Source: Haloferacaceae archaeon (GTDB lineage: Archaea > Halobacteriota > Halobacteria > Halobacteriales > Haloferacaceae). From it: a stretch of 45,472 nt of DNA. The stretch lies in NCBI GenBank assembly GCA_028274865.1, contig JAQCMY010000021.1, forward strand, positions 1 through 45,472. The letters run 5' to 3'. Positions 2,364-25,197 of this stretch are shown in pieces; position 1 is the first letter of the stretch, and each line of letters starts with the position of its first letter. The notes under the pieces are model-generated. The model was given only the letters and a program-made list of their open reading frames with translations. It did no database searches and was not told the origin of the DNA. Both the position numbers and the translations under genes were made by a program.

Positions 2364-3296
2364 ATGAGCGGGCAGGCCTCGCGCCGCAAGCCCGACTGGC
2401 TGAAGACCCGGCCCGCGAGCGGGCAGCAGTTCGCGGAGATATCGCGGACGCTCCGTGACCACGACCTCGTCACCGTCTGTGAGGAGGCGTCGTGCCCGAA
2501 CCGCGGCGAGTGCTGGAGCGGCTCGAACGGGTCGCCCGGCACGGCGACGTTCATGCTGATGGGCGACCGCTGCTCGCGGGGCTGTAACTTCTGTGACGTC
2601 GAGACCGGCGGAACCGAGCCGCTCGACCCCGACGAACCGGAGAACGTCGCGAGCGCCGTCGCCGAGATCGGCCTCGACTACGTGGTGCTCACCTCCGTCG
2701 ACCGCGACGGCCTGCCCGATCAGGGGGCGAGCCACGTCGCAGAGACGGTGCGGGCGATACGGCGACGCAACCCGGACGTGCTGATCGAGGCGCTCGTCCC
2801 GGACTTTCGGGGCGATCCCGAACTCGTCGACCGGGTGGCGCGCGCACGACCGGACGTGTTCGCGCACAACGTCGAGACGGTCGAACGGCTCCAGCAGCCG
2901 GTGCGTGACCCTCGTGCCGGCTACGACCAGTCGCTCGCGGTGCTGGAGCGGGCGGCCCGCGAGCACGACCTGCGGACGAAGACGAGCCTGATGCTCGGCG
3001 TCGGCGAACACGCCGCCGAGGTGTACGAGGCGCTCGCGGACTGCCGCGCCGCCGGCGTCGACGTCGTGACCCTCGGACAGTACCTCCGGCCGTCGTCGTC
3101 GCACCTCCCCGTCGAGCGGTACGTCCACCCCGAGACGTTCGAGACGTGGCGTGCGGTCGCGGAGACGGAGCTCGGCTTCCTCTACTGCGCGAGCGGCCCC
3201 CTCGTCCGGTCGTCGTACCGCGCGGGCGAACTGTTCGTCGAAGCGCTGGAGCGCGAGGGGTCGGTCGAGGCGGCCCGCGCCGCGGCGCGAGAGTAG
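2364..3296 (+). CDS. lipA: Lipoyl synthase
   Basis: KPDWLK, CEEASCPNRGECW and the radical-SAM motif CSRGCNFCDV are present. The 310-aa length is typical of LipA. Confidence 0.95.
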   Translation: MSGQASRRKPDWLKTRPASGQQFAEISRTLRDHDLVTVCEEASCPNRGECWSGSNGSPGTATFMLMGDRCSRGCNFCDVETGGTEPLDPDEPENVASAVAEIGLDYVVLTSVDRDGLPDQGASHVAETVRAIRRRNPDVLIEALVPDFRGDPELVDRVARARPDVFAHNVETVERLQQPVRDPRAGYDQSLAVLERAAREHDLRTKTSLMLGVGEHAAEVYEALADCRAAGVDVVTLGQYLRPSSSHLPVERYVHPETFETWRAVAETELGFLYCASGPLVRSSYRAGELFVEALEREGSVEAARAAARE

Positions 3297-3327
3297 CCGT
3301 TATTCCGCCGGGGGTGCTGGAGCGAGC

Positions 3328-4095
3328 ATGAGTCTCGCAGACGCCGAGAGGTGGCGAATCGTCGACGAGCGGACGCCACGCCCGGAGCCGGTCCACCACG
3401 GGGTCGACGCGGAACTGCTGGACAGCGTCGGAGCGGGCGAGGCGCCGCCGACCCTCCGGCTCTGGGACCGGTCTGCGCGGTCGGTCCTGATCGGTCGATT
3501 CCAGTCGTACGAGGACGAGGTGGCGACGGCGTACGTCGAGCGCGAGGGGATCACCGTCGTCCGGCGACTCACCGGCGGCGGCGCGGTGTACTGCGAGCCC
3601 GGCGGCGTGTTGACCTACTCGCTCGCCGCGCCGCGAGACGCCCTCCCGGACGACGTGGCCGAGGGGTTTCGCGTGTGCAACGAGTGGGTCGCCGCGGTCC
3701 TGCGCGAACTCGGCGTCGACGCCCGCCACGACCCGCTGAACGACATCGCGGGTCCGGACGGCAAGATAGCCGGCGCGGCACAGCTCCGGACCGCCGACGC
3801 AGTGCTCCACCACGCCGTCCTGAGCCACACGCTCGACGCCGCCGAGATGGTCCGGGTGCTCCGCATCGGGGCCGACAAGCTCTCGGAGAAGGCCGTCGCG
3901 TCGGCTGAGCGCGCCGTCGCGCCGGTCGGTACGGCCGTCGACGCGACGCCGGGCGAGGTGACCGACGCCCTCCGCGAGGGGTTCCGCGAGCGGTTCGGCG
4001 GCGCGGACGGGTCGCTGACCGACGCGGAGCTGGCGGGGGGGAGGCGGCGGGCCGAGGAGCGGTTCGCGCGACACGAGTGGACGCGTGTTCGATAG
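3328..4095 (+). CDS. lplA: Lipoate-protein ligase family protein (BPL/LPL catalytic domain)
   Basis: RRLTGGGAVYCEPG and the catalytic-Lys motif GKIAGAAQ are present, and the gene sits next to lipA. I moved the start to the ATG at 3328 because the upstream part of track ORF 3151 is Arg-rich junk. Confidence 0.85.
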   Translation: MSLADAERWRIVDERTPRPEPVHHGVDAELLDSVGAGEAPPTLRLWDRSARSVLIGRFQSYEDEVATAYVEREGITVVRRLTGGGAVYCEPGGVLTYSLAAPRDALPDDVAEGFRVCNEWVAAVLRELGVDARHDPLNDIAGPDGKIAGAAQLRTADAVLHHAVLSHTLDAAEMVRVLRIGADKLSEKAVASAERAVAPVGTAVDATPGEVTDALREGFRERFGGADGSLTDAELAGGRRRAEERFARHEWTRVR

Positions 4096-4102
4096 TGAAC
4101 GT

Positions 4103-4112
4103 CTATCTTTTT
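4103..4112 (+). promoter_or_regulatory. A/T-rich box CTATCTTTTT: T5 run 13 nt after the lplA stop and TATA-like element about 29 nt before GTG 4137
   Basis: Oligo-T tracts act as archaeal termination signals. The spacing to the next start codon fits a leaderless promoter. Confidence 0.4.
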
Positions 4113-4136
4113 GCTGCCGGAGACGATTCTACATGT

Positions 4137-5297
4137 GTGGAACCCCCCGAAGTCGACGAACTCACGCCTCCGCACCGAACACTGATGGGCCCGGGCCCGA
4201 GCGACGTCAACCCGCGGGTTCTCCGTTCGATGTCGACGCCGCTGGTCGGCCACCTCGACCCCTCCTTCGTCGAGATCATGGACGAGGTTCAGGAACTCCT
4301 GCGCTACGTCTTCCAGACCGACAACCAGTGGACCCTGCCGGTGAGCGGAACCGGGTCGGCAGCGATGGAGGCCTGTATCGGTAACCTCGTCGAGCCCGGC
4401 GACAGCGTCCTCCTGCGGACGGAGGGCTACTGGGGCGACCGGATGGCGGAGATGGCACGCCGCGCCGGCGGTACGGTCGTCTCGCTCCCGACGGCGGCAA
4501 ACGACCCCGTCGGGATGGCGGAGTACGAACGCGCCTTCGCCGAGGCGGAGATCGACGTGGTCGGCATCTGCCACGCAGACACGACGACGGGGATTCGCCA
4601 GCCAAACGTCGGCGAGATGACCGACGTGGCCCACGACCACGGCGCGTACGTGATCGCGGACTGTGTCACCTCGCTCGGCGGCGTCCCGGTCCACGTCGAC
4701 GACTGGGGGGTCGACGCGGCCTACTCTGCGGCCCAGAAGTGTCTCTCCGCCCCGCCCGGCGCGAGTCCGCTCACGATCTCCGACCGCGGGATGGCGAAGG
4801 TGCTCGACCGCGACGAGGACGTGCGGTCGTGGTACCTCGACCTCTCGCTCCTGGAGGGGTACTGGGGCGACGAACGGGCGTACCACCACACCGCACCGAT
4901 CACGAACACCTACGCCCTTCGCGAGGCGCTACGGGTCGCAGCCGAGGAGGGGATCGAGGCGCGCTGGGACCGTCACGCGCGGGTCTCGGAGCGACTGGTC
5001 GAGGGGCTCGCGGACCTCGGGCTCTCGATGAACCCGCCCGAGGGGCTCGCGCTGCCGTCGCTCAACGCCGTTCGGGTGCCCGACGGGGTCGACGACGGGG
5101 CCGTCATCGACCACCTGCGCGAGGCGTACGACATCGAGGTCGCAGCCGGGCTCGGCGGGCTCTCGGGGGAGATCTGGCGGATCGGGACGATGGGCTACTC
5201 GGCCCGTGACAAGAACGTCGCCTACCTCCTCGACGCGATGGCCGACGCCCTCGCAGCCGAGGGGTACGAGCAGACGACGGCAACGACGCCGGCCTAG
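4137..5297 (+). CDS. Class V pyridoxal-phosphate aminotransferase (alanine-glyoxylate / serine-pyruvate aminotransferase family)
   Basis: [33 protein letters not shown] and SAAQKCL (PLP lysine region) are present. The GTG start at 4137 was chosen from the TATA spacing. The track ORF starts at 4077. Confidence 0.85.
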
Positions 5298-6331
5298 AGC
5301 GACCGCAGGAACGCCCGCACCCGCGTCGCCGTCTCGGTCCACGTCGGGTGTGCCCGCACCGTCTCGAGCGCCGCCTCGCTCGCCGCCCCGAGTGCCGCCG
5401 GGTCGCGGGCGTAGCGCCCGACTGCCCGTGCCACGCCCGCCGCGTCACCCGGGTCGACGAGGACGCCGTTCTCGCCGTCGACGAACTCGCGGGCGCCGCC
5501 GGCGGCGCTCGCGACGACCGGACATCCGGCGCCCATCGCCTCCAGCGCCGCGATGCCGTAGCCCTCGTACGTCGACGGCATCGCGAACACGTCCGCGTCG
5601 CGCAGGTGTTCGCGCAGGCGCTCGTCCGGGGCGCGGCCCCGGAACCGCACCCGGTCGGCGACGCCGAGCGCAGCTGCCCGCGCCCGGAGCGCGGCGACGT
5701 AGCCGGGGGCCGGCGTCGACCCGACGACGTCGAGCGTCCACGGCGTGTCGACACGCGCGAGGCCGTCGAGCAGGGTCGGGTGGCCCTTCCGCGGCAGGAC
5801 GGTGCCGACGGTGACGACGCGGAGCGGCGCGCCCGGGTCGCGCGACACGGCGTCCTCGGGCGGGCCGTCGGCGAGGCGGTTCCAGCCGGGGCGGGCGACG
5901 ACGGCGGGAGTCGGGTCGACGAGCTCCGCGACCGTCGCGCGGGTCGTCTCGCCGTTGCAGACGTAGGCGTCACACCGGGCGAGAAACCGGCGCTCGAGCG
6001 CGCGGTCGACCCGCCGTCGCGGCGCCGGGCCGGGTTCGGACGCCCGGAGGTGGTGGACGACCGCGACGGCGGGCGCGGGCAGCGGACAGAACGCGAGCGA
6101 GGGGTGACAGAGCTCGTCGACGAGGAGGACGTCGACGTCGAGGGCGGCGAGGCGGCGCCGGACGGCGGGCCGGAGGTTGTGCGCGAGAGCACGGCGCCGG
6201 CCGGTCTCGGGGAGCGAGACGCGGACGACGGTGTCGCCACGGGCACGCAGGCCGTCTGCCACCCGGCGGTCGTAGAGGTAGCCGCCGGAGCGACAGTCGA
6301 GGGGGCCGTAGACGACGACGCCGACGCGCAC
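5294..6331 (-). CDS. Glycosyltransferase, GT-B fold, GT4/group-1 type
   Basis: The C-terminal domain has RKG...L, the PSTYEGYGIAALEAMGAGCPVV (EX7E) motif and GENGVLV. The GTG start at 6331 overlaps the upstream TAG by 1 nt (TAGTG). The part of the track ORF upstream of 6331 is Arg-rich. Confidence 0.8.
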   Translation of the reverse strand: MRVGVVVYGPLDCRSGGYLYDRRVADGLRARGDTVVRVSLPETGRRRALAHNLRPAVRRRLAALDVDVLLVDELCHPSLAFCPLPAPAVAVVHHLRASEPGPAPRRRVDRALERRFLARCDAYVCNGETTRATVAELVDPTPAVVARPGWNRLADGPPEDAVSRDPGAPLRVVTVGTVLPRKGHPTLLDGLARVDTPWTLDVVGSTPAPGYVAALRARAAALGVADRVRFRGRAPDERLREHLRDADVFAMPSTYEGYGIAALEAMGAGCPVVASAAGGAREFVDGENGVLVDPGDAAGVARAVGRYARDPAALGAASEAALETVRAHPTWTETATRVRAFLRSL

Positions 6332-6711
6332 TACGCCTCGGGCTCGTACGCCACGGCGGCGGTCTCGTCCTCCCAGAGCCGGAGGCGAAGCGTCGTCTCC
6401 GGGGGGAGCTCCGTCTCCGCCTCGAACCGCTCGACGACGAACCGGGCGAGGCGTTCCGCGCTCGGGTTCAGCCCCGCGAACTCGTCGAGGTCGTTCAGCG
6501 TCGCGTCCTCGTAGCGGTCGACGGCTGCCGCGAGGCCGCCTTTCACCTCGTCGATGTCGACGAGGTAGCCCCACTCGTCGAGCTCCGGGCCGGAGAGGGT
6601 CAGCTCCGCCCGGAACGTGTGACTGTGGCGCTCGCCCTCGACCGGACCGGGGTCGGGGACGGTGAGCCAGTGCCAGGCGACGAACTCGCGGACGACGGTG
6701 ACCTCGTACAC
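6331..6711 (-). CDS. 6-pyruvoyl-tetrahydropterin synthase (PTPS/QueD) fold protein, Cys-less variant
   Basis: The 126-aa protein has His in WHW and in ERHSH (a three-His Zn pattern) and YLVDIDEVK typical of the T-fold family. No Cys precedes the HxH motif. Confidence 0.8.
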   Translation of the reverse strand: MYEVTVVREFVAWHWLTVPDPGPVEGERHSHTFRAELTLSGPELDEWGYLVDIDEVKGGLAAAVDRYEDATLNDLDEFAGLNPSAERLARFVVERFEAETELPPETTLRLRLWEDETAAVAYEPEA

Positions 6712-6712
6712 G

Positions 6713-7741
6713 CTACGTCACCTCCCGGTGGTCGAGAAGGACCCCGACCGGCGAGTCGGGGCCGTCGAGGCGTCGGTAGGCCGCCGACGCGTCCTCGAGC
6801 GACACCCGTTCGGCGAGGAGCCGGTCGGCGTCGAGGCGGTCGAGGTGGGTCCACGCCGCGTCGATGCGCCGCTCGCGGCTCCACCGTCCCCGGCGCGCCG
6901 GGTCGATCGTGCTGACCTGCGTGCTCTCGACGGACACCCGCGAGCGGTGGAACCGGCCGCCGAGGTCGAGATCCGCGCGCTTCGTCCCGTACCACGACCC
7001 GACGAGCACCCGACCGTCGTAGCCGGTGACGGCGACGGCGTCGTCGAGGGCCGCAGGGTCGCCGGAGAGTTCGACCGCGAGGTCGGCACCGTCTGTCGCC
7101 CGGCCCGTCACGCCCGGGCCGGAGGGGTCGAACGCGTCGCGGACGTCCGCCGGGGGACCCGTCTCCGTCGCGCCGTGGACGTCGGCGAGCGACCGGCGCT
7201 CTGGCTGCGGGTCGACTGCGACGAGTTCGTCGAGCGGGTAGGCCGCGAGCAGCGCCGTCGTCGCGAGGCCGACGAGCCCCTGTCCGAACACGACTGCGCG
7301 CTCGCCGACGGCGGGCGCGGCGTCGAGACCGACGGTCACGGCCGTCTCGGCGGTCGGGAGAAGCGTCGCGGCGGCGTCGCCGACGCCGTCCGGAACGGGC
7401 ACGAGTTCGTCCGGCGACAGGCAGAAGTGGGTGTCGTGGGGGTGGAAGGCGAAGACACGCCGGCCCCGCCACGCGTCGTCGACGGCCTCACCGGTCGCCG
7501 TCACCTCGCCGACGGCGGCGTAGCCGTAGCGGAGCGGGTAGCCGCCAGAGAGGGCCGGGATACGCTCGTCTAGGTCCACCGATCCGGGCACCTCGTCGCG
7601 GTAGACCAGCAGCTCGGTGCCGGGACTGACCGCGGAGACGCGCGTCCGGACCCGCACCTCGTCGTCGTCCGGCGTCGGAACCGGGTGGTCGCGCAGCTCC
7701 ACCGACCGCTCGCCGGTGAAGTAGAGCGCGCGCGCCGGCAT
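6713..7741 (-). CDS. Medium-chain dehydrogenase/reductase (zinc-binding alcohol dehydrogenase family, apparently without catalytic Zn ligands)
   Basis: GroES-like N-terminal domain, then a Rossmann motif VVFGQGLVGLA. GYAAVGEV stands where GHE..G..V is expected. The ATG at 7741 shares one base with the upstream TGA (TGATG). Confidence 0.8.
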   Translation of the reverse strand: MPARALYFTGERSVELRDHPVPTPDDDEVRVRTRVSAVSPGTELLVYRDEVPGSVDLDERIPALSGGYPLRYGYAAVGEVTATGEAVDDAWRGRRVFAFHPHDTHFCLSPDELVPVPDGVGDAAATLLPTAETAVTVGLDAAPAVGERAVVFGQGLVGLATTALLAAYPLDELVAVDPQPERRSLADVHGATETGPPADVRDAFDPSGPGVTGRATDGADLAVELSGDPAALDDAVAVTGYDGRVLVGSWYGTKRADLDLGGRFHRSRVSVESTQVSTIDPARRGRWSRERRIDAAWTHLDRLDADRLLAERVSLEDASAAYRRLDGPDSPVGVLLDHREVT

Positions 7742-8532
7742 CAGTCGTCTGCGGCCGACTCGGGGCGTTCGTGGTCGTGCCCGAACTCGACCGCGGTGCC
7801 GTCGTGTCGGCACCGCTCGAGGGCGTGTTTCGCCGTCATGCCGGCGTCGGCAGCCGTCGGACCGGTACCGACACCGACCTTCAGCGACACGCCCGTCTCC
7901 TCCGCGACGTGGTCGATAGCCTGGCGGTACGCCGCGGTCGAGATGTCGGGAACGGCGGCGACGAAGTTGTCGCCGCCGACGAAGAAGACGAGGCCGCCGT
8001 GGGCCTCGCGGAGGTGGCCCATCAGCGAGACGGCGGCACGGTCGACGACGAGGAGCGAGTCGTAGGCGTTGAGTCGGTCGGTGTACTCGCCGGTGACGTC
8101 GTCGACGTCGAAGTGGGCGATAGCGACGTCCTCCGGACCGGGTGTCGGCGGGTCACTGGCGAATCCGAGCACCTCGCGCCGGTCGCCGTCCTGTGCGCTC
8201 CCCGCGGCCTGGACCTGCGCGGTCGCCTCGTCCAGGGCCGTCGCGGGCGAGGTGTCTGACCCGACGCCGAGGCTGGCGGTCACGGGATAGCGGTTGCCGA
8301 GCGACTCCTGGAGCCGGCGGTGGTCGTTCCGGTCGAGGCCGTTCGTCACCGCGACGAGGTTGTCGTACCGTGTCGGGAACGCGTAGCCGCCGCGTGAGCC
8401 GACGAAGGCTGCTACGTCCGCGTACAGCCGACTCTGGAGCACCTGAAGGTCCATCTCCGGGCGCGGTTCGGGGGTGACTGTCCACGGTCCGTAGTTGTCT
8501 ATCTGAACCAGCGTCAGCTGCGTTTCTGTCAT
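7741..8532 (-). CDS. GTP cyclohydrolase III (archaeal, MJ0145 family)
   Basis: MTETQLTLVQIDNYGPWTVTP, FFVGGDNF (GGDEF-like palm motif) and the 263-aa length fit. The ATG at 8532 was chosen because the upstream part of track ORF 8859 has a non-coding character. Confidence 0.85.
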   Translation of the reverse strand: MTETQLTLVQIDNYGPWTVTPEPRPEMDLQVLQSRLYADVAAFVGSRGGYAFPTRYDNLVAVTNGLDRNDHRRLQESLGNRYPVTASLGVGSDTSPATALDEATAQVQAAGSAQDGDRREVLGFASDPPTPGPEDVAIAHFDVDDVTGEYTDRLNAYDSLLVVDRAAVSLMGHLREAHGGLVFFVGGDNFVAAVPDISTAAYRQAIDHVAEETGVSLKVGVGTGPTAADAGMTAKHALERCRHDGTAVEFGHDHERPESAADD

Positions 8533-8616
8533 CTGTACCCTCAATTTGCCGCCGCATACATCGGTGTTTGGATACGCAGTCGAGAGATTCAAGCGCGACC
8601 GGCTCCCGGTCTGCCC

Positions 8617-9399
8617 GTGCGTGGCGTCGTACTCGACGTTGACGGGACAGTACTCCGCGGGTCGCGGCTGGTCGACGGGGCGCGGGCGGGGCTGGACGCG
8701 CTCGCCCGCGCCGGCGTCCGCCGGCTGTTCGTCTCGAACAACCCGACGAAGACTCCCGAGGCCTACGCGGCCCGCCTCCGCGCGGCGGGCGTCGAGGCAG
8801 ACGCCGACGCCGTCGTCACCTCCGGGACCACGACGGTCCGGTACCTCCGCGAGCACCATCCCGACGACCGGCTGCTGGTCGTCGGCGAGGACGGCCTGCG
8901 CGAGCAGCTCCGCGCCGCCGGCCTGACCGTGCTCGACGGCTACGCGGGCGACGGGCCGCCCGTCGACGCCGTCGTCGCCTCGATCGACCGTGACCTGACC
9001 TACGACGACCTCGCGGCGGCGCTGTGGGCGATACAGGACGGCGCGACGCTCGTCGGCACCGACCCGGACCGAACCATCCCGACGGCGGACCGCGACCTCC
9101 CGGGGTCGGGGGCCGTCGTCGGCGCGGTGACGAGCGTGGCCGACCGCGACCCGGACGCGGTGCTGGGCAAGCCGTCACCGACCGCACGGCGGGTCGTCCG
9201 CGAGCGTCTCGGACTCCCGCCGGCGGACTGTCTCGTCGTCGGCGACCGCCTCGACACGGACGTCGCCCTCGGCGCCGCCGCCGGGATGGAGACGGCGCTG
9301 GTACTGACCGGCGTCGCGTCACGCGCAGACGCTCGCGAAGCAGACGCCGCGCCGGACCACGTCCTCGACTCGCTCGCCGACGTCGAGGCGCTCGTCTGA
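8617..9399 (+). CDS. HAD-superfamily hydrolase, subfamily IIA (NagD / sugar-phosphatase like)
   Basis: DVDGTV (DxDGT), SNN and GKP...VGDRLDTD motifs are present. The length is 260 aa. Confidence 0.85.
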   Translation: MRGVVLDVDGTVLRGSRLVDGARAGLDALARAGVRRLFVSNNPTKTPEAYAARLRAAGVEADADAVVTSGTTTVRYLREHHPDDRLLVVGEDGLREQLRAAGLTVLDGYAGDGPPVDAVVASIDRDLTYDDLAAALWAIQDGATLVGTDPDRTIPTADRDLPGSGAVVGAVTSVADRDPDAVLGKPSPTARRVVRERLGLPPADCLVVGDRLDTDVALGAAAGMETALVLTGVASRADAREADAAPDHVLDSLADVEALV

Positions 9400-13112: not shown

Positions 13113-13159
13113 CGGGCCGGGATGCCGGGGTTGAAGTCCCGGCCGACCCACCTCGCGGT

Positions 13160-14230
13160 ATGAACACGCGGGATCTGTCCTCGCACGAGCCGTACGTCCC
13201 CGGACGGGGCATAGAGGAGGTGGCCCGGGAACTCGGCGTCGCTGCCGCCGACCTCACGAAGCTCTCGTCGAACGAGAACCCGTACGGCCCGAGTCCGCGC
13301 GCCGTCGAGGCGATGGAGGCGGCGGTCGGCGGCGTCCACCGGTACCCGAAGGCGTCGCACACCGACCTGACGGCGGCGCTCGCCGACGAGTGGCGCCTCG
13401 ACCCCGCGCAGGTGTGGGTGTCGCCCGGCGCGGACGGCGCGCTCGACTACCTGGCCCGGGCGACGCTGGAGCCGGGCGACGGGGTGCTGGTGCCCGACCC
13501 CGGGTTCGCGTACTACGCCATGTCGGCGCGCTACCACAACGCCCGGGTCGAGACCTACCCCGTGACGAAGCCCGACGACTTCGCCCAGTCCGCCGACCGG
13601 GTGCTCGACGCCTACGACGGCGAACGGCTCGTCTACCTCACCTCGCCACACAATCCGAGCGGGAGCGAGATCGCCCTCGACGAGGTGCGGACGCTCGCGG
13701 AGCGGGTCGACCCGGAGACGCTCCTCGTCGTCGACGAGGCGTACGGCGAGTACTCGGCGGCAGCGAGCGCCCGGACGCTCGTCGACGAGTACGACAACGT
13801 CGCCGTGACGCGGACGTTCTCGAAGGCGTACGGGCTCGCCGGCCTCCGGGTCGGCTACGGACTCGTCCCGGCGTCCTGGGCGGACGCCTACGCCCGGGTG
13901 AACACCCCCTTCGCGGCGAACGACCTCGCCTGCCGTGCCGCGAACGCGGCGCTCGACGACGACGACCACCTCCGACGGTCGGTCGACGGGGCGCGCCGGT
14001 CGCGAGAGCGGCTGCGCGACGGCCTCGACGTCCGGACGTGGCCGAGCGGCGGCAACTTCGTGCTGGCCGAGGTTGGCGACGCGGCAGCCGTCGCGGAGGC
14101 GGCGAAGCGCGAGGGCGTCATCGTCCGCGACTGCGGGAGCTTCGGCCTCCCCGGCTGTATCAGGGTGACCGCCGGCACCGCCGAGGAGACAGCCGAGGGC
14201 GTCGCGGTCCTCAACCGCGTGACCGACTGA
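13160..14230 (+). CDS. hisC: Histidinol-phosphate aminotransferase
   Basis: KLSSNENPYGPSP, SPHNPSG and RTFSKAYGLAGLRVGY (PLP lysine) are present. The ATG at 13160 lies inside a long artefactual track ORF. Confidence 0.9.
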   Translation: MNTRDLSSHEPYVPGRGIEEVARELGVAAADLTKLSSNENPYGPSPRAVEAMEAAVGGVHRYPKASHTDLTAALADEWRLDPAQVWVSPGADGALDYLARATLEPGDGVLVPDPGFAYYAMSARYHNARVETYPVTKPDDFAQSADRVLDAYDGERLVYLTSPHNPSGSEIALDEVRTLAERVDPETLLVVDEAYGEYSAAASARTLVDEYDNVAVTRTFSKAYGLAGLRVGYGLVPASWADAYARVNTPFAANDLACRAANAALDDDDHLRRSVDGARRSRERLRDGLDVRTWPSGGNFVLAEVGDAAAVAEAAKREGVIVRDCGSFGLPGCIRVTAGTAEETAEGVAVLNRVTD

Positions 14231-14742
14231 TGCGGGTGGCGCTGACCGGCACGCCGGGGACGGGAAAGACCAGCGCCGCCGCCGAACTCGGCGTCCCGGT
14301 CGTCGCGCTGAACGACGTCGTCGAGCGCGAGGGGCTGTGGACGGAGCGCGACGACGAGCGGGGCTCGCTGGTGGCCGACCTCGACGCGGTCGAGGCGTGG
14401 CTCGCCGAGGCGGCACCGGCTGTCGACCACGTCGTCGAGTCACACCTGGCACACCTGTTCCCCGCGGACCGGACGGTGGTACTGCGGTGTCGCCCCGACC
14501 GGCTCCGCGAACGACTGACCGGCCGCGGCGCAGCCGAGGCGGCAGCCGCGGAGAACGCCGAGAGCGAGGCACTCGACGTGGTGCTGTCGGAGGCCGTCGC
14601 GGAGCAGGGCCGCGGGTCGGTGTACGAGGTCGACACGACGGCGCTGACGCCGGGCGAGGCGGCCACGGCAGTCGAGGCCGTCTTCGCCGGCGAGCGGGCG
14701 CCGAGCGCCGGAACCGTCGACTTCACCGGGTACGTCGAGTGA
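14230..14742 (+). CDS. AK6/Fap7-type adenylate kinase-like NTPase
   Basis: The P-loop ALTGTPGTGKTS is present and the length is 170 aa. The ATG overlaps the hisC TGA (ATGA). Confidence 0.8.
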   Translation: MRVALTGTPGTGKTSAAAELGVPVVALNDVVEREGLWTERDDERGSLVADLDAVEAWLAEAAPAVDHVVESHLAHLFPADRTVVLRCRPDRLRERLTGRGAAEAAAAENAESEALDVVLSEAVAEQGRGSVYEVDTTALTPGEAATAVEAVFAGERAPSAGTVDFTGYVE

Positions 14743-16321: not shown

Positions 16322-16963
16322 GTGTTCGTCCTCGTCAACCTGAAGGCGTACGACGTCGACCCCGTCGCCGTCGCGGAGCACGCGGCTGCCGTCGCCGACA
16401 GTCACGACGCGCGGGTCGCCGTCTCGCCGCAGACCGCGCACCTCGACCGCGTCGCGGCGACCGGCGTCGAGACCTGGGCCCAGCACGCCGCGCCGACCGG
16501 GCACGGCAGCCACACCGGGAGCCAGCACGCGGCTGCCGCCGCCGACGCCGGCGCGGTCGGGACGCTCCTGAACCACTCCGAGCGCCGGCTCCGCCTCGCG
16601 GACGTCGACGACGGCCTCGGCGCCGCCGGGCGCGCCGGCCTCTCGACGGTCGTCTGTGCGAACAACCCGGCACAGGCCGCGGCGGCGGCGAGTCTCGGCC
16701 CGGACGCCGTCGCGGTCGAGCCGCCGGCGCTCATCGGCGGCGACGTCTCCGTCGCGAGCGCCGACCCGGCTGTCGTCGAGGAGTCCGTCGCCGCCGTCGA
16801 GCGGGTCGACCCCGACGTGGCGACCTACTGCGGCGCCGGCGTCTCGACCGGCGACGACGTGGCCGCGGCAGCCGACCTCGGCGCGGAGGGTGTTCTGCTC
16901 GCCAGCGCCGTCGCGAAGGCAGACGACCCGCGCGGCGTCCTCGAGAACCTCGTCACTCGATGA
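16322..16963 (+). CDS. tpiA: Triosephosphate isomerase (archaeal short type)
   Basis: [14 protein letters not shown] and [10 protein letters not shown] are present. The length is 213 aa. The GTG start has a GCTTAAC box about 27 nt upstream. Confidence 0.9.
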
Positions 16964-19900
16964 TCTCCGCGTCCTGACCGTCCCGGGGGTCGCCGGAGGC
17001 GGTTACGGACGACCGGCCGGTGTCGTCCGACGTCCCGGACGAGTCGGCGCCGTCCGTGGTGTCGTCTGACGCCTCGGCTCCTCGGTCCGGCTCGTCGACG
17101 AACTCCGCCTCGTCGACGAACTCGACGTCTTCCTGGCGGAACGCCGGCGTGAGGGCGTCCTCGTCTGCCTCGACGAACTCGACGTCCGGGTCGGTGACGG
17201 CAGCGTCCGGCGCGCCGGCCTCGTCGACGTCGGCGAGCGTCCAGCCGTGGACCGGGTCCTCGACGAACGCCGCCTCGACGGAGCGCAGGACGTCCGCGAG
17301 GTCGTTCTCGTGGAGACGGTCGTCGTACTCCTCGCGCACCAGCGCCGGCAGGGCGTAGGCGTACTTGCCCTTGCCGACGTGGTCGACGAGGCCGGCGCGC
17401 CGCAGCCGGCGAATCCGCCCGTACGCGAGCTCGCGGTCCGCGTTCCCGCCCGCCGCGACGTGGGCCTCGACCGGCGTGACCGGCCCCTCGCTCCGGACGT
17501 GTCGCAGCATCGCCGTCGGCGGCTCGTCCAGCGACGCCACCCGGTCCGCGAGGTCCGCGACGAGCGCCTCGTGGGTGCCGAGGGTCATCCGCGCCGGGCC
17601 GGCAGCGGCGGGGTCGTCGCCGGCTGCCTCGTCCGCTCCGTCGGCACGACCGACAGCAACCGGCTGCTGGTCCGTCCCGGCGGGCCGGTCCCCGGAGCCG
17701 GTCTCGTCCGCCGCCCTGGGTCCCGACGGCTCGGCGGCGTCCGGAGCGTCCGTGTCCGCCCGTTCGGGCCCGGGCCGGTCGGCAGACTCGCCCGTGTCCC
17801 GCTCCGTCGGGGCTGTCCGCTCGCCGCCCGCGGTCGGGGGCGGCCCGCCGTCCCGTGGCGGCTGCCCGTCGGCGTCTCGGGGCGCCGCCGCGTCGGCGCC
17901 GGCGTCCGGCCACTCGCCGGTGCCGTCGAGGTCGACGCCATCGGTGTCGCTCGCGCCGTCGGTCGGCGCCGACCGCCCGGCGTCGCCCGCCGTCTCGTCC
18001 CGGTGTGGCGCGTTCGAGCGGTCGAGCAGCGCCTGCGAGAACCGCTCGGCCATCTGCTCGAGGTTCCGTGCCTCCCCCAGCTCCGCCTCTAACTCCGCGA
18101 TACGGGCCTCCTTGCGCTCCAGCTCCTGCCGGAGGTCCGCGAGTTCGGACTCGCGGCGCTGCTGTTCGTCGGTGATGGCGCGCAGGTCCGAGACGAGGTC
18201 GTCGTCGACGCTCTTCAGCTCCGGTCGCTCGAACTCGTCGAGGCCGGGGGTCGCGCCGGCGTCGAACGTCCGCTTGCGGTGGAACTGGACGCGCCGGATC
18301 GACTCCGACCAGTCGGTCATCAGGAACGCCTCGCCGTCGTCGAGGTCCTCCACCGCCTCCGCGTGCTCCCGGTCGATGATGCGGCGCACGACCTGCGTGT
18401 CGTTGTCCCAGGTCAGACGGTGCCAGCAGAGCCAGTCACACTGGGTGATGTAGTCCTTCTTGACGTTCGCCGGCCGCTGGCTGATGCCGAGGAGCCCGAG
18501 ACCGTGCTTGCGTCCACGCTTGCCGATCTTGACGAGCATCCGCCCCGCGTCCGTCGTGCCGCCGCCCTCCGGAATGTACTCGTGGACCTCCTCGACGAGC
18601 AGGAGGAACGGCTGTTTCAGCTTCTTCTCCTTCGCGAACAGGTGTCGCGCCGTCTCGAAGACGAGTTCGTCGGCGACGGCCTCGTCCAGGTAGCCCGACA
18701 CGTCGAGGACGATCGGGACGTTCTGCTCCAGGGCGAGCGAGGCGAGCTTCTCGGCGTGTTCCGGCGCGACCTGGATGTCGCACTCGTCGTCCGCGCCGGC
18801 GTGGAGCAGTTCGAACTCCTCTTTCAGCCCGTAGTACTCGCCCTCGACGTCGACGATGAGGAGCGGGTAGCCGTCGTCGAGCAGCCGCTCCGCGACGACG
18901 CTGGCCGAGTTGGAGTTGTGGACGAAGACGCCGTTGGCGACGAAGTTGTCGTTGACCGCCACGTCGAGGTCGTACACCGTCCGTTCCGCGTCGAACTCCT
19001 CGACTTCGGCAACCCGCTTCCACTGGACGTCCGACTCACCGAATGCGCGGGCACGACCGCCGATTCCGAGCTCCTCGACGATCCGGTTGTACGTCTCTCG
19101 ACCAGCCTTCTGCTGTCGCGTGAGGTGGTTGACCGATGCGCCGTCGACCCGCCGGTCGCTGTCGCGCGCCGTCCACCCTGCACTCCGGGCCGCGGCGTTG
19201 AGCACCGGGCCGAAGTTCGGGATCGTGTCCTTCGAGTTGTAGCGGTCGCCGTCGGCCCGGGTCCGACACAGCGCGTCGAGCGCCTCGGACTTCGACCCGA
19301 CGCTCAGGTCGACGACGTCGCGGAACCGGTCCAGACAGAACGCGTCGACCCCGAGCCGACGGTACCGACGCCGCTCCCCCTCGTGGCGCGTGAACTTCTC
19401 GCGGACCGTCGTCGAGACGCCGAACCCTCTGAGCAGTTCGCGAAGCCCGTCGACCAGCGGCTCAGACTTCGACATCGCCGTGACGGTCGAGTCACCGACC
19501 GTACCGTCGCCGTCGACGTACCCCGAGAGGAGCCCGGCCCGGAACGATTCGGGCGTGTCGAACGCCCAGTTCGGGATCGACTTCTCCGCCGCGCCTCGAC
19601 CGAACTCCGCCTCGAAGAAGCGGGCGAGCGGCTGGAATCCCTTGTTGCAACTCCGGTCGTCGACGTCGTAGCCCCGGGACCGGAGGAACGCCTTCACTTC
19701 CTCGTCGACGTTCGAGATCTGGATCGTCAGGTGCGAGTCGAACGACCCCTCGGCGAGGTAGAGACCGACCTCCTTGCCGGTCTCGAAGTCGAGAGCGAGG
19801 TGTCTGTCGTCGGTCCGGGGACCGCTCTGTATCACGCCGCCGTCGACGACGAGGTCGTTCGCTCCGTCGTCGACGTAATCGGCGAGGTCGATCTCGGTGG

Positions 19901-20369
19901 TGGACGCCGTGCTGGGGAGTTCGCGGGCGAGCGGCATCCACGTCCCCGCCTCGAGTTCGTCGCCGCGAACCGGGACGATCTCCGTTCCGTCGACCGTGAG
20001 GAAACTGTGGTCCTCCGTCCCGACGAGTTCGGTTCCGTCCTCCAGCGTGACGCGCAGGAGCCGGTCGTCGGTGTGTCGGATCGTCGCCCGAACCTCCCGG
20101 AACTCCTGCTCGAACGTGTGGCGGTTCAGCGAGAGGACGCGGTCGCCCTCCTCGACGGCCTCGATTGGCTTGCGCCCCGACTCGGTGTGGACGGGCGTCC
20201 CCTCGAGGATGCTCTTGCCGCTCCCAGACTTCCCGGTGACGAACCCGCGGCCGGTGAGGAGTTCGACGACCGGGAGCGAGACGCTCGCACCCGGTGCCGT
20301 CCCGTCGCCGCCCGGTCCGTCGCTCACGTCCGCGACGGTTATCGTCCGCGTCGTGGGCCCATCGCTCAT
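16953..20369 (-). CDS. HerA/FtsK-like (DUF87-type) P-loop ATPase with coiled coil, acidic disordered region and C-terminal winged-helix domain; contains an intein
   Basis: Walker A TGKSGSGK|SNS is restored after removing residues 53-485. Walker B is [10 protein letters not shown] and [14 protein letters not shown] follows. The heptad-like segment is [25 protein letters not shown]. The C-terminal segment [21 protein letters not shown] is wHTH-like. Confidence 0.85.
18915..20213 (-). mobile_element. Full-length intein (433 aa) with LAGLIDADG homing-endonuclease domain, inserted in the Walker A motif
   Basis: The N-terminal splice residue is Ser (SILEGTPV, block A). Block B is GTEDHSF (TxxH). 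The LAGLIDADG motifs are [10 protein letters not shown] and [12 protein letters not shown]. The C-terminal blocks are [21 protein letters not shown] followed by +1 Ser. Removing the element recreates GKSGSGKSN. Confidence 0.85.
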
Positions 20370-22206: not shown

Positions 22207-23145
22207 TCAGCGGTGTTTCGCGAGGAACGCGTCGGCGCTTCGCTCCCACTCGTAGTCCGTGTCGAAGTACCGCTCGGCGAGGGGTTCGTCCGGCATCTCG
22301 CCGATCGCGCGCTTCTCCTGCCCGTAGGAGGGCCGGTCGTCGTCGCGGTAGTAGACGCCGGTCAGCACCTCGCCCTCGTACAGCTTGTCCTCCGTCTCGC
22401 GCATCAGCTCCTGGGCCTCGGCCCGGTCGGTCGGGTCGAACTCGAAGTCCTCGGAGTCGTTTATATCGACGTAGGGGACGTACTGCTTGGCGTCCTTGTT
22501 CCACGTCGGACACTGCGTGAGGAAGTCGATGTGGGCGAACCCGTCGTGTTCGATCGCCTCGACGAGGATGCGCTGGGCCTGGTTCGGGTTGACCGCGGCG
22601 GTCCGGGCGACGAAGGAGGCACCGGAGGTGAGCGCGAGCGACAGGGGCCGGATCGGGTCTTTCGCGCTCCCCGAGGGCTGGGTCTTCGACTTGTGACCCT
22701 TCGGGCTGGTCGGGGACGTCTGTCCCTTCGTCAGCCCGAATATCTCGTTGTTGAACACGATGTAGGTCATGTCGTGGTTCTCCCGGGCGGTGTGCATGAA
22801 GTGGTTCCCGCCGATACCGTAGCCGTCGCCGTCGCCGCCGGCGGCGACCACCTCGACGCCGGGGTTCGCCATCTTGGCGGCCCGGGCCACGGGCAGCGAG
22901 CGCCCGTGGATCGTGTGGAAGCCGTAGCTCTCGAAGTACGAGTTCAGCTTGCCGGAACAGCCGATGCCGGTCACCAGCAGCGTCTCGTCGGGCGTCCGCC
23001 CGACCTCGGGCATCGCACCCTTCAGCGCCTTCAGGACGCCGAAGTCGCCACAGCCCGGACACCACGTCGGCTGGGGCTCCAGCCCGGGGGTGAACTCCTC
23101 GCGGTCGCTCGCTCGCTCCTCGCCGATACCGGTGAATGTGCTCAT
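22207..23145 (-). CDS. porB: 2-oxoacid:ferredoxin oxidoreductase beta subunit (size and context suggest the pyruvate enzyme)
   Basis: TWCPGCGDFG and the TPP-binding region GDGDGYGIGGNH are present. ATG 23145 gives MSTFTGIGEE, typical of the family, and lies 4 nt after the porA TAA. Confidence 0.85.
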   Translation of the reverse strand: MSTFTGIGEERASDREEFTPGLEPQPTWCPGCGDFGVLKALKGAMPEVGRTPDETLLVTGIGCSGKLNSYFESYGFHTIHGRSLPVARAAKMANPGVEVVAAGGDGDGYGIGGNHFMHTARENHDMTYIVFNNEIFGLTKGQTSPTSPKGHKSKTQPSGSAKDPIRPLSLALTSGASFVARTAAVNPNQAQRILVEAIEHDGFAHIDFLTQCPTWNKDAKQYVPYVDINDSEDFEFDPTDRAEAQELMRETEDKLYEGEVLTGVYYRDDDRPSYGQEKRAIGEMPDEPLAERYFDTDYEWERSADAFLAKHR

Positions 23146-23149
23146 TGTG

Positions 23150-25042
23150 TTAGTCACCTGCTGCGGGGACGAAGCGGGTCTCGTTGCCCGGAACCTCCCC
23201 GTCGCCGTCGATGTTCGTCTCGAACCCCTCGACTACCTCGGCCGGCTCGAAGGGGTTGCCGTTGTACTTCAGGAGGCTTGCGAGCTGGTCGTCGCCCGTC
23301 CCGAGCTCCTTCTGGGTCAGCCCGCGGAACTGTGCGGAGGCGTTCATCTCGACGACCAGCGCCTCGTCGACGCCCCGGAGGAACGCCCGCACCTCCTCGA
23401 CCGGGTACGGCATCAGTTCGCCGACGGTCAGCGCCTTCACCGAGTGGCCGGCGTCGTTCAGGCGGTCGACCGCCTCCTCGACCGTACCCTGCTGGCTGCC
23501 GAACGTGAGGACGCCGTGTTCGGCGTCTTCCGGGCCGTACGCGTCGTTCAGCGTGTCGCCGTCGAGGTCGGCGCGGATCGCCCGGAGCTTCTCCGAGCGC
23601 CGGTCGACCTGCGCGACGCGGTTGTCGGGGTCCTCGCTGATGTGTCCTGGCGCGTTGTGCTCGTTGCCGGTGACGAGGTGGCGGCCGCCCTTCTGTCCGG
23701 GGACGGACCGCGGACTGACCCCGTCCTCGACGTCGTGACGGAACCGCTCGAACTTGCCCGAGGCGTCGTGGGGTGCGTCGGCGATCTGGTCCTCTGTCAG
23801 CACCGAGCCGGGGTCGGTGTTGGGCTCGCGGTCGAAGTGGCTCGCCGGGACGTTGACCAGTTCGCCGCCGAGCTTCTGGTCGTACAGCAGAATCGCCGGG
23901 ATCTGGTACTCGTAGGCGACCTGAAACGCCCGCCGTGCGTGGTCGTACGCCTCCGCGACGGTGCCGGGCGCGAACACGACGCGGTTCGAGTCGCCCTGGC
24001 TCGTGTAGAGAACGTGTTCGAGGTCGGCCTGTTCGGGCTTGGTCGGCATCCCCGTCGACGGGCCGGCCCGCATCGCCTCGATGAGGACGACGGGCGTCTC
24101 GGACATCTCCGCGAGCCCGAGCGGCTCCGACATCAGCGCGAACCCGCCGCCGGAAGAGCCGGACATCGACTTCACCCCCATGTGAGAGGCACCGATCGCG
24201 AGCGCCGCGGCGGCGATCTCGTCCTCGACCTGTTCGGAGACGCCGCCCAGCTGCGGCAGGCAGTTGGACATGATCGTGAACACCTCGGTCCACGGCGTCA
24301 TCGGGTAGCCGGCGATGAACCGGCAGCCCTCGTCGATCGCGCCGTAGGCGATCGCGTCGGAGCCCGACAGGAGCACCTGCTCCTCCTCGTGGTCGCCCTC
24401 CGGGACGCGTACGGCGGTCGCGTCGACGTCGAACGCCGACTGGACGTGTTCGTACGCCTCGTCGAAGACGGTGAGGTTCGCGTCGAGGATCTTCTCCGGC
24501 ATCGCGTCCCGCATCATCGACTTGATCGTCTCCGGCTCGATGCCGGTGATGGCGCAGGTGCAGGCCACGCCCGCGGTGTTGCGCATCACCTCCCGACCGT
24601 GTTCGCGGGCCATCGTCCGGAGGTCGACCGGGAAGACGTGCCAGTCGTTCGCCTCGGCGCGTTCGTCGAGGTCGGCGACGGACTCCTCGTCGAGGAGGCC
24701 GGAGTCGTAGACGATGACGCCGCCCTCCCGGAGGTCGTCGAGGTTCTCGGCCAGCGGCTTCGCCTCCTCGTTGCCGTAGTAGGCGCCGTCCCGGGGGTTC
24801 CGGGCGAAGGAGTCACCCAGCGCGAGGAGGAAGTTGTAGCCGTCGCCGCGCGAGCGTACCGGCTCCGACGACGCCCGTACCTCCGTGTACGTGTGTCCGC
24901 CGCGGATGCGCGACGGGTAGTGACGGTGGGTGAACACGTTGAGGCCGGAGCGCATCAGCGCCTTGGCGAAGTTCTGGCTCGTCGAGGCGATGCCGTCGCC
25001 CGACCCACCAGCGACCCGCCAGATGAGTTCGTCGTCTGTCAT
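23150..25042 (-). CDS. porA: 2-oxoacid:ferredoxin oxidoreductase alpha subunit
   Basis: WRVAGGSGDGIASTSQNFAKA and GYPMTPWTE are present. The length is 630 aa and the gene is adjacent to the beta subunit. Confidence 0.88.
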   Translation of the reverse strand: MTDDELIWRVAGGSGDGIASTSQNFAKALMRSGLNVFTHRHYPSRIRGGHTYTEVRASSEPVRSRGDGYNFLLALGDSFARNPRDGAYYGNEEAKPLAENLDDLREGGVIVYDSGLLDEESVADLDERAEANDWHVFPVDLRTMAREHGREVMRNTAGVACTCAITGIEPETIKSMMRDAMPEKILDANLTVFDEAYEHVQSAFDVDATAVRVPEGDHEEEQVLLSGSDAIAYGAIDEGCRFIAGYPMTPWTEVFTIMSNCLPQLGGVSEQVEDEIAAAALAIGASHMGVKSMSGSSGGGFALMSEPLGLAEMSETPVVLIEAMRAGPSTGMPTKPEQADLEHVLYTSQGDSNRVVFAPGTVAEAYDHARRAFQVAYEYQIPAILLYDQKLGGELVNVPASHFDREPNTDPGSVLTEDQIADAPHDASGKFERFRHDVEDGVSPRSVPGQKGGRHLVTGNEHNAPGHISEDPDNRVAQVDRRSEKLRAIRADLDGDTLNDAYGPEDAEHGVLTFGSQQGTVEEAVDRLNDAGHSVKALTVGELMPYPVEEVRAFLRGVDEALVVEMNASAQFRGLTQKELGTGDDQLASLLKYNGNPFEPAEVVEGFETNIDGDGEVPGNETRFVPAAGD

Positions 25043-25197
25043 AGATAAATCGGCCCGTGAGGGCCACCGATATCAGGTTACCGACGCCTCCGTATATGGT
25101 TTGCTGTGCCATCTCGATGATAGATCGTGAACGTGGGCGTCTCGACCGCTCTCGCTGTTCCTCGCGCTCCCGTGTGTGTCGGTAGCGCGGTTCGCGG

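Follow-up and report, generated by a model that had tools for sequence, protein, structure and literature searches.

A conserved gene cluster of Halobacteria, bacteria and haptophytes points to an uncharacterized pathway branching from the first steps of riboflavin and F420 synthesis

A 45,472-nucleotide contig from a Haloferacaceae archaeon (JAQCMY010000021.1 of assembly GCA_028274865.1; the whole stretch is called the window here) encodes four tightly packed genes for GTP cyclohydrolase III (GCH III, or ArfA), a zinc-less MDR oxidoreductase, a PTPS-fold protein (T-fold, COG0720) and a GT4 glycosyltransferase. On balance, we favor the view that this operon is the Haloferacaceae version of a widely conserved, uncharacterized pathway that branches from the first steps of riboflavin and F420 synthesis. 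Its product here, which we propose from inferred chemistry, would be a glycosylated pteridine or ribitylaminopyrimidine. The enzyme set differs from that of every characterized GTP-derived pathway, and was partly anticipated as the orphans PTPS-IV, SCO6650 and SCO6655. A literature search found no characterization of the pathway, and no reaction or product assigned to the MDR, the T-fold protein, the GT4 or the methyltransferase that often accompanies them, in keeping with an earlier note on this DNA that knew of no characterized pathway joining the four families.

The four open reading frames (ORFs) lie head-to-tail on the minus strand: GCH III (arfA, 7741-8532; ATG start, TGA stop; 263 amino acids), the MDR (6713-7741; ATG start; 342 amino acids), the T-fold protein (6331-6711; GTG start; 126 amino acids) and the GT4, a GT-B enzyme of the retaining type (5294-6331; GTG start; 345 amino acids). 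Direct inspection of the sequence confirmed this layout and all three junctions as the earlier note had described them. At the GCH III/MDR junction, TGATG at 7739-7743 (in the context GAC-TGATG-CCG), the A of the GCH III TGA is also the A of the MDR ATG, an overlap of one nucleotide. A single base separates the MDR stop from the PTPS GTG at the second junction (TAG-c-GTG, 6709-6715, in ACG-TAG-C-GTG-TAC), and at the third (TAGTG, 6329-6333, in GCG-TAGTG-CGC) the G of the PTPS TAG doubles as the G of the GT4 GTG, again a one-nucleotide overlap. GC content at third codon positions (GC3) is 0.87-0.95 in the four frames, which fits the 73% GC of the window, and we take them as real genes for this reason. 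The start/stop overlaps together with the conserved gene order support the earlier proposal of a coupled unit, and GCH III-MDR-PTPS-GT4 is one operon. Pfam and NCBIfam searches upheld all four family calls. GCH III is the only one of the four proteins to pass a curated equivalog-level threshold in NCBIfam; the MDR, T-fold and GT4 proteins, like the methyltransferase and CDP-alcohol transferase described below, reach no NCBIfam equivalog cutoff.

We searched one genome per GTDB species and found a relative of the window PTPS gene in 308 species, with the best 80 loci all from Halobacteria. Neighbors were counted in the 57 loci with full 7-kb flanks; ORF calls (GC3-based for haloarchaea, longest-ORF for metagenomes) and our home-made hidden Markov models (HMMs) are approximate, and the counts are lower bounds. 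The linkage is conserved across the class: an MDR gene accompanies the PTPS gene in 49/57 loci, a GT4 directly downstream of it in 41 and GCH III in 31. GCH III is found either directly before the MDR, as in the window, or after the methyltransferase. The nearest locus, in metagenome-assembled genome (MAG) A07HB70, is 94-99% identical across the four proteins, and the window GCH III shares 65% identity with the orthologue that Haloferax elongans has at the corresponding place. The exact window arrangement, with no methyltransferase or transferase nearby, recurs in 12 of the 57 loci, several Haloferax species among them (four species of this genus other than H. volcanii show the four-gene arrangement). 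Contrary to what had first been thought, the unit is not limited to four genes. A class I S-adenosylmethionine (SAM) methyltransferase of about 305 amino acids is as conserved as the GT4 (41/57), and a DUF7475 membrane protein (28/57), a CDP-alcohol phosphatidyltransferase (24/57) and a flippase-like LPG_synthase_TM protein also recur. In the 80 loci searched, RibD_C gave no match near the cluster and creatininase one; the ArfC reductase and the ArfB-type deformylase lie outside the haloarchaeal cluster neighborhood.

The cluster is not specific to halophiles. The window T-fold protein has a relative of 55% identity in the bacterium Salinibacter ruber, where the order is GCH II fused to RibD_C, MDR, PTPS and methyltransferase. 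A Streptomyces locus, whose T-fold protein is 98% identical to SCO6650, reads CDP-alcohol transferase, MDR, PTPS-IV, GT4, methyltransferase-like protein, LPG_synthase_TM, creatininase and GCH II; the first five of these proteins each best match the corresponding haloarchaeal family. At Streptomyces locus L085 a creatininase-family gene lies beside the GCH II gene (13119-13883, minus strand, and 13919-14608, plus strand). We also scanned metagenomes, using bacterial-type PTPS sequences as seeds, and recovered 80 loci of 42-70% GC. Their consensus comprises CDP-alcohol transferase, LPG_synthase_TM, DUF7475, GCH II, RibD_C, MDR, PTPS, GT4 and methyltransferase, in operons whose reading frames often overlap and after which come unrelated housekeeping genes (lspA, pseudouridine synthase). 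Where the upstream flank was long enough, MDR was present in 18/22 loci, RibD_C in 13/22 and GCH II in 11/22; with enough downstream flank, GT4 was found directly after PTPS in 29/33 and the methyltransferase in 21/33. A marine bacterial contig of 26% GC (L168, GCA_902582755.1) carries creatininase (7258-8025, minus strand), MDR, PTPS-IV, GT4, methyltransferase, RibD_C and GCH II, and another contig, of 35% GC, carries CDP-alcohol transferase, methyltransferase, GCH II-RibD_C, MDR, PTPS, GT4 and a HAD protein. The 26% GC bacterium is presumably streamlined, yet keeps its seven-gene cluster, and the two PTPS sequence clusters that match it (P0441 and P0468) have about 400 members each, Tara Oceans sequences included.

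The distribution extends to eukaryotic algae. In an exhaustive profile search of 1.84 billion representatives, the top-ranked proteins were haptophyte proteins of 375-855 amino acids with three tandem PTPS-IV domains (P0362, P0361 and P0364), whose cluster mates come from Emiliania huxleyi, Gephyrocapsa oceanica and Prymnesium. Three such domains in one chain would make a built-in T-fold trimer. The haloarchaeal methyltransferase HMM hits the C-terminus of the 855-amino-acid form (E 1.2e-16), and by this match the protein is a Rosetta-stone fusion of two cluster members. Because the same order is found in dozens of Halobacteria species and analogous enzymes occur in unrelated phyla, the gene arrangement is far above chance.

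What changes most between lineages is the enzyme at the head of the cluster. Beside the same MDR-PTPS-GT4 core we find GCH III, GCH II-RibD_C fusions, or GCH II together with a creatininase, so that non-homologous GTP cyclohydrolases adjoin this core in archaea, Salinibacter, Streptomyces and uncultured bacteria. The pathway is thus very probably fed by a GTP cyclohydrolase, as the earlier note supposed. That three non-homologous routes to a diaminopyrimidine nucleotide have been joined to one core argues strongly that the core consumes this nucleotide or its reduced form. The same note placed the branch at the formylaminopyrimidine nucleotide (FAPy), the product of GCH III, which now appears unlikely. 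At the residue that determines whether deformylation takes place, the bacterial GCH II proteins linked to the cluster carry the canonical Tyr in all 14 cases that could be scored (LRAYNLQ in S. ruber); the Streptomyces cluster GCH II has Met at this switch position (LRAMALQ). The Tyr-versus-Met rule for deformylation was reportedly established by Spoonamore et al. in 2006, and we take the Met-type Streptomyces enzyme to be of the FAPy-forming SCO6655 type. Both the archaeal FAPy deformylase ArfB and the bacterial BrbF belong to the creatininase family (PMC9478397), which suggests that the creatininase genes of Streptomyces and the 26% GC marine bacterium encode ArfB/BrbF-like deformylase partners for their cyclohydrolases. 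The cluster RibD_C domains pass the riboflavin-specific ribD_Cterm cutoff of NCBIfam. Given the Tyr-type GCH II, the creatininase partner and the RibD_C reductase, the shared intermediate would have lost its formyl group and, most likely, been reduced to the ribityl form, and the ribityl diaminopyrimidine nucleotide is the likely branch point.

The window GCH III matches PF05165 (E 3.4e-84) and the NCBIfam model NF002587, 'GTP cyclohydrolase IIa', with 367.1 bits against a cutoff of 306. By orthology it is the predicted entry enzyme that converts GTP to FAPy. The Haloferax volcanii ArfA is 44% identical to MJ0145, and deletion of its gene (HVO_1284) leads to riboflavin auxotrophy (PMC8305020). 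Because of this phenotype, and because linkage to the cluster is seen in only about half of the haloarchaeal loci, arfA is probably a housekeeping riboflavin gene, which in this organism would serve both riboflavin synthesis and the orphan branch.

The T-fold protein matches PF01242 (E 4e-22) and falls below the QueD model cutoff (39.9 bits against 89.25). Its AlphaFold2 (AF2) model has a mean predicted local distance difference test (pLDDT) score of 92.4 and shows the beta-beta-alpha-alpha-beta-beta architecture of a T-fold monomer, and the top Foldseek matches are QueD, SCO6650 and PTPS, with template modeling (TM) scores of 0.78-0.84. The best solved relative by sequence is SCO6650 of Streptomyces coelicolor (PDB 3D7J; E 1.7e-16 over the full length, about 29% identity, TM 0.84), whose function is likewise orphan. 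Residues His14, His29 and His31, the predicted metal ligands, show little or no variation across the haloarchaeal and bacterial subtype, as do Glu25 and Glu114; the latter is invariant even in comparison with Streptomyces and would be the C-terminal Glu that anchors the heterocycle in the T-fold. To our knowledge, every T-fold enzyme with an established function has a purine or pterin-like ring as its ligand.

The protein has no Cys, as the earlier note observed. The place of the QueD Cys is taken by Glu25, and the Asp70-His71 pair of QueD is not conserved, the corresponding residues being Glu/Arg-Asp. Membership in QueD/PTPS-II, with the motifs CxxxHGH or CxxxxxHGH and Asp-His partners, is ruled out by the missing Cys. 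PTPS-III (ExxHGH) is also ruled out; the window motif is E-G-E-R-H-S-H, with Glu at -4 and no HGH (motif definition from PMC5041015 and PMC5445326). The family is not a new orphan: reviews of COG0720 divide it into PTPS-I to -VI and already list PTPS-IV, to which SCO6650 and structure 3D7J belong, as an orphan with an FGPAQ signature and a GTP_cyclohydro2 (PF00925) neighbor (PMC5041015; PMC5445326). The strict signature is absent from the window protein, which has PGPVEGE and shares only G-P. Among the top 150 representatives, a class with FGPAQxLHG[A/C/I] and no third His is found in Streptomyces, marine bacteria and haptophytes, and a class with xG[PA]E..H[SAT]H in Halobacteria, Salinibacter and many bacteria. 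Since FGPAQ is absent but intermediates such as FGPEGSLHSH link the two classes, the motifs identify the window protein as a His-retaining sister subtype of PTPS-IV (SCO6650) rather than a strict member.

The MDR protein (Pfam ADH_zinc_N, E 6e-9) was earlier called zinc-less, and this is correct throughout its family. We compared 56 members, which come from Halobacteria, Salinibacter and Streptomyces. With the Escherichia coli Tdh sequence as the reference, all three ligands of the catalytic zinc are substituted (Cys by Ser, His by Tyr and Glu by Ala), and the lobe with the four Cys of the structural zinc site is deleted in every member. The motifs SxxSxGTExLxY, YGY, GSWYG and FHR...SSQVST are kept from Halobacteria to Streptomyces. 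The Rossmann GxGxxG is conserved (GQGLVG) and is accompanied by an Asp after the second strand, which suggests that the enzyme uses NAD. Its AF2 model (pLDDT 81) has the two-domain MDR fold; the closest structures are those of polyol and threonine dehydrogenases (16-18% identity), and TM scores to butanediol, sorbitol and threonine dehydrogenases are about 0.75. From these sequence features, we class the MDR as a distinct orthologous family that has lost all zinc ligands.

The glycosyltransferase matches Glyco_trans_1_4 (1.7e-32), Glycos_transf_1 (3e-30) and Glyco_transf_4 (6e-11), and its E-x7-E motif reads EGYGIAALE in the translation. Its closest solved relatives are Tll1590 (3e-19), MshA (2e-14) and PimB' (1e-11). 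BGluT is a weaker match (1e-8) in the C-terminal domain only, and membership in the pteridine glycosyltransferases (BGluT/PgtA) is ruled out on this basis. Judged by its domains and relatives, the protein is a generic retaining GT-B enzyme.

Taken together, these features suggest how the pathway could run. ArfA would open GTP to FAPy, and an ArfB-type deformylase and ArfC, encoded elsewhere in haloarchaea, would convert this to 2,5-diamino-6-(5-phosphoribitylamino)pyrimidin-4(3H)-one. The zinc-less, probably NAD-dependent MDR would then carry out a redox step on this ribityl diaminopyrimidine phosphate. Oxidation at the 2'-hydroxyl is the most economical guess, as it would let the 5-amino group form a dihydropteridine ring; ribityl reduction followed by MDR oxidation would be roughly the equivalent of the Amadori step of GCH I. 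The T-fold protein may grip the 2-amino-4-oxopyrimidine face through Glu114, and its three-His metal site, with carboxylates in place of a Cys, could complete ring closure or a rearrangement of the side chain. Perhaps the MDR and T-fold proteins do close the ring in this specific way, although we put this forward as a speculation. The GT4 would move a sugar from a nucleotide sugar onto a side-chain hydroxyl, as MshA does with a polyol phosphate. In genomes with the additional genes, the product would also be methylated, and it would probably be attached through a phosphodiester to a lipid or alcohol and carried to the other side of the membrane. The final modifications and the placement of the molecule would there fall to the methyltransferase, a phosphatase, and the CDP-alcohol transferase together with the flippase-like pair. 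A possible, if rather doubtful, end product is a GTP-derived ribitylaminopyrimidine or pteridine that is glycosylated and methylated, lipid-linked on the outer leaflet where CDP-alcohol phosphatidyltransferase, flippase-like and DUF7475 genes are present, and a soluble or unlinked glycoside in the window organism.

Parts of this scheme resemble known systems. The genes SCO6650-SCO6655 of S. coelicolor comprise the same families in the same order (MDR, T-fold, GT4, methyltransferase, with CDP-alcohol transferase and GTP cyclohydrolase nearby). They differ in that the window protein keeps three His residues, with xGPEGExHSH where SCO6650 has FGPAQxLHGA, in that the entry enzyme is GCH III rather than the Met-switch GCH II and creatininase of Streptomyces, and in that the methyltransferase, CDP-alcohol transferase and flippase-like genes have no equivalent in the window. 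The archaeal ArfA/ArfB/ArfC pathway shares ArfA; the branch point would be the ArfC product, for which the bacterial clusters encode equivalent GCH II and RibD_C enzymes, whereas the MDR, T-fold, GT4 and methyltransferase proteins have no counterpart in riboflavin or F420 synthesis. There are precedents for re-routing the diaminopyrimidine nucleotide of the riboflavin pathway to a pterin or a pyrimidine glycoside. In the folate bypass of Chlamydia, the GCH II product undergoes a TrpF-catalyzed Amadori rearrangement to dihydroneopterin phosphate, and VC1, which leads to the pyrimidine glucosides vicine and convicine of faba bean, is a GCH II. The enzyme families differ throughout from these two, and our cluster implicates the ribityl (reduced) form, with a redox-driven ring closure that is only proposed.

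The earlier note had drawn a parallel to bacterial pterin-glycoside routes, and it holds at the level of enzyme classes. Both the cluster and the cyanobacterial pteridine-glycoside route (GCH I, PTPS, sepiapterin reductase and BGluT/PgtA) pair enzymes for GTP ring opening with a T-fold protein, a nicotinamide-dependent oxidoreductase and a GT4-class enzyme. It fails in the particulars: entry is through GCH III or GCH II and then RibD_C, not GCH I; the T-fold protein has no catalytic Cys; in place of an SDR, the oxidoreductase is an MDR of the zinc-less kind; BGluT is a more distant relative of the window GT4 than MshA, PimB' and Tll1590 are; and the conserved cluster adds a methyltransferase and membrane components.

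Several points weigh against a dedicated branch pathway of this kind. The steps beyond ArfA, their order and the ring closure are deduced from chemistry. GCH III is missing from the neighborhood in about half of the haloarchaeal loci. A tblastn search over the full 45-kb window found no methyltransferase, CDP-alcohol transferase or DUF7475 gene, and with the first two absent from the whole 45 kb the local product may differ or be incomplete. The nearest solved GT4 relatives act on inositol phosphate or phosphatidylinositol, not on pterins. SCO6650 reportedly binds no zinc and shows no PTPS activity (the work is that of Spoonamore et al. in 2008), and since the third His is lost in the Streptomyces/haptophyte subtype, metal-assisted chemistry cannot be universal in the family. 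Finally, an unpublished remark ties PTPS-IV to F420 synthesis (PMC5041015).

This last point leads to the alternative that survives best, one we nonetheless consider unlikely: the downstream genes could fill gaps in riboflavin or F420 synthesis, either as the FAPy deformylase, the pyrimidine deaminase or the phosphatase, or as functions needed for F420. The overlapping junctions imply that they are co-transcribed with arfA, a T-fold protein with a zinc-His3 site could in principle hydrolyze a formamide or amidine, and the haloarchaeal riboflavin pathway does have three remaining gaps alongside the auxotrophy of the arfA deletion (PMC8305020). The core of the cluster, however, has members with no role in riboflavin or F420 synthesis (the glycosyltransferase, the SAM methyltransferase, the CDP-alcohol phosphatidyltransferase and a flippase-like protein), and bacterial clusters begin with a deformylating Tyr-type GCH II that makes a deformylase needless there. 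Heterologous reconstitution of F420 synthesis has moreover reportedly succeeded with none of these genes. The remark on PTPS-IV and F420 has stayed unpublished since 2016 in the literature we searched, and HVO_1235 and HVO_2483 are already candidates for the haloarchaeal gaps (PMC8305020).

The branch pathway must also be weighed against two readings of its product that we regard as improbable to the same degree. In the first, proposed in the earlier note, halophiles would turn FAPy into a pterin glycoside (a halopterin), in a stepwise parallel to GCH I, PTPS, sepiapterin reductase and pteridine glycosyltransferase. The enzyme families are superficially parallel, BGluT is itself a GT4 and is detectable as a weak relative, and there are descriptions of charged pterins from haloarchaea and of a neopterin glycoside from Sulfolobus. 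The idea is weakened by the spread of the cluster beyond halophiles, to Streptomyces and other bacteria of soil and sediment, to a marine bacterium of 26% GC and to haptophytes. FAPy is not the common substrate either, as most clusters have a deformylating GCH II with RibD_C and Streptomyces adds a creatininase. The T-fold protein lacks the PTPS/QueD Cys and has Asp at the QueD His71 position, and the reductase is of the zinc-less MDR type rather than an SDR.

In the second, the cluster would make a lipid head group: 5-phosphoribitylamine (a 1-amino-1-deoxypentitol, or 'aminopentanetetrol') would be released and the pyrimidine discarded, and the amine would then be glycosylated, N-methylated and joined to CDP-archaeol or CDP-diacylglycerol. 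This would account for the recurrence of the CDP-alcohol phosphatidyltransferase, LPG_synthase_TM, the methyltransferase and a MshA/PimA-like GT4, and ribitylamine is chemically an aminopentanetetrol. N-methylated aminopentanetetrol lipids occur in Methanospirillum, and aminopentanetetrol lipids in some thermophilic bacteria. To spend GTP and discard the pyrimidine would nevertheless be extravagant for a bulk lipid head group; no CDP-alcohol transferase lies nearby in several clusters (S. ruber and loci L086 and L168); the conserved pterin/purine-anchoring Glu of the T-fold suggests that the heterocycle is the business end; and aminolipids are absent from halophilic archaea according to a review (PMC4244643).

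A coincidental neighborhood, in which arfA just happens to be adjacent in some haloarchaea and the substrate of MDR-PTPS-GT4 has nothing to do with GTP (for example, a sugar or cyclitol phosphate destined for a glycolipid), is compatible with the 31/57 count for GCH III within 7 kb and with the weak similarity of the MDR to inosose/polyol dehydrogenases and of the GT4 to MshA and PimB', but it is highly improbable, for the same core lies, with frames often overlapping, beside GCH III, beside GCH II-RibD_C and beside GCH II, creatininase and RibD_C in unrelated lineages; this repeated analogous displacement of the entry enzyme excludes chance adjacency for practical purposes, and the ligands of known T-fold enzymes also speak against it. 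A defense role has no support, as none of the four proteins matched a PADLOC anti-phage defense model.

The surroundings of the operon add a further candidate. Divergent from arfA, across an 84-bp intergenic region (8533-8616) that presumably holds the promoter or promoters of the operon and its neighbor, lies a gene for a HAD-IIA phosphatase (8617-9399, plus strand; Hydrolase_6 5e-28, Hydrolase_like 2.5e-23). The protein reaches no NCBIfam equivalog threshold, and the divergent pair recurs in at least 12 Haloferacaceae loci. It possibly performs the dephosphorylation step of the orphan pathway or of riboflavin synthesis, and it could be the haloarchaeal 5-amino-6-ribitylaminouracil-phosphate phosphatase, a gap noted in PMC8305020. 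At another locus (L169) a different HAD gene immediately follows the GT4. On the other side of the operon, a class V aminotransferase gene (about 4077-5297, plus strand) converges on the GT4 with a 4-nucleotide overlap and is preceded, at 2364-4095 of the plus strand, by lipA (lipoyl synthase) and an lplA-like gene (lipoate-protein ligase-like). Farther away are an ORF of 1138 amino acids with an intein splicing domain and a LAGLIDADG homing-endonuclease domain (16953-20369, minus strand) and the beta and alpha subunits of a 2-oxoacid:ferredoxin oxidoreductase (22207-25072, minus strand). Among the subset of window ORFs that was checked, there were no further riboflavin, folate or F420 genes. 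The RbkR operator TnnCA-N4-TGnnA (PMC5397151) has no match anywhere in the window, a weak test given how crude the consensus is.

Other genes also recur near the cluster in the 80 haloarchaeal loci: a fusion of GFO/IDH/MocA and aldo/keto reductase (19 loci), a second glycosyltransferase, of family GT1 (15 loci), and a sulfatase-like protein (12 loci). Examples of such additional neighbors lie at 3086-5071 of locus L058, 989-2104 of L060 and 4951-5835 of L073. A MAG labeled as uncultured Thermotogae (L083) encodes GCH II-RibD_C, MDR, PTPS and CDP-alcohol transferase, with proteins 44-53% identical to the window MDR, PTPS and GT4. A mistaken taxonomic label for the MAG or a transfer of the cluster could account for this.

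For more than 15 years there has been no explanation for the PTPS-IV/SCO6650 T-fold family or for the FAPy-forming GCH II of Streptomyces. Our comparison places both of these old orphans in a single cluster of 6-9 genes that is found from haloarchaea to haptophyte algae. Members of its families are at present misannotated as '6-carboxytetrahydropterin synthase', 'zinc-dependent alcohol dehydrogenase' or 'bacteriochlorophyllide a dehydrogenase'. The comparative anatomy of the cluster gives a defined enzyme set for reconstitution, with Haloferax and Streptomyces as tractable hosts. That a drain on the riboflavin pathway has been kept so widely implies an important metabolite. Should the rather doubtful lipid-linked product outlined above exist, it would in effect be a lipid-anchored cofactor, pigment or signal of the pterin or flavin-precursor type.

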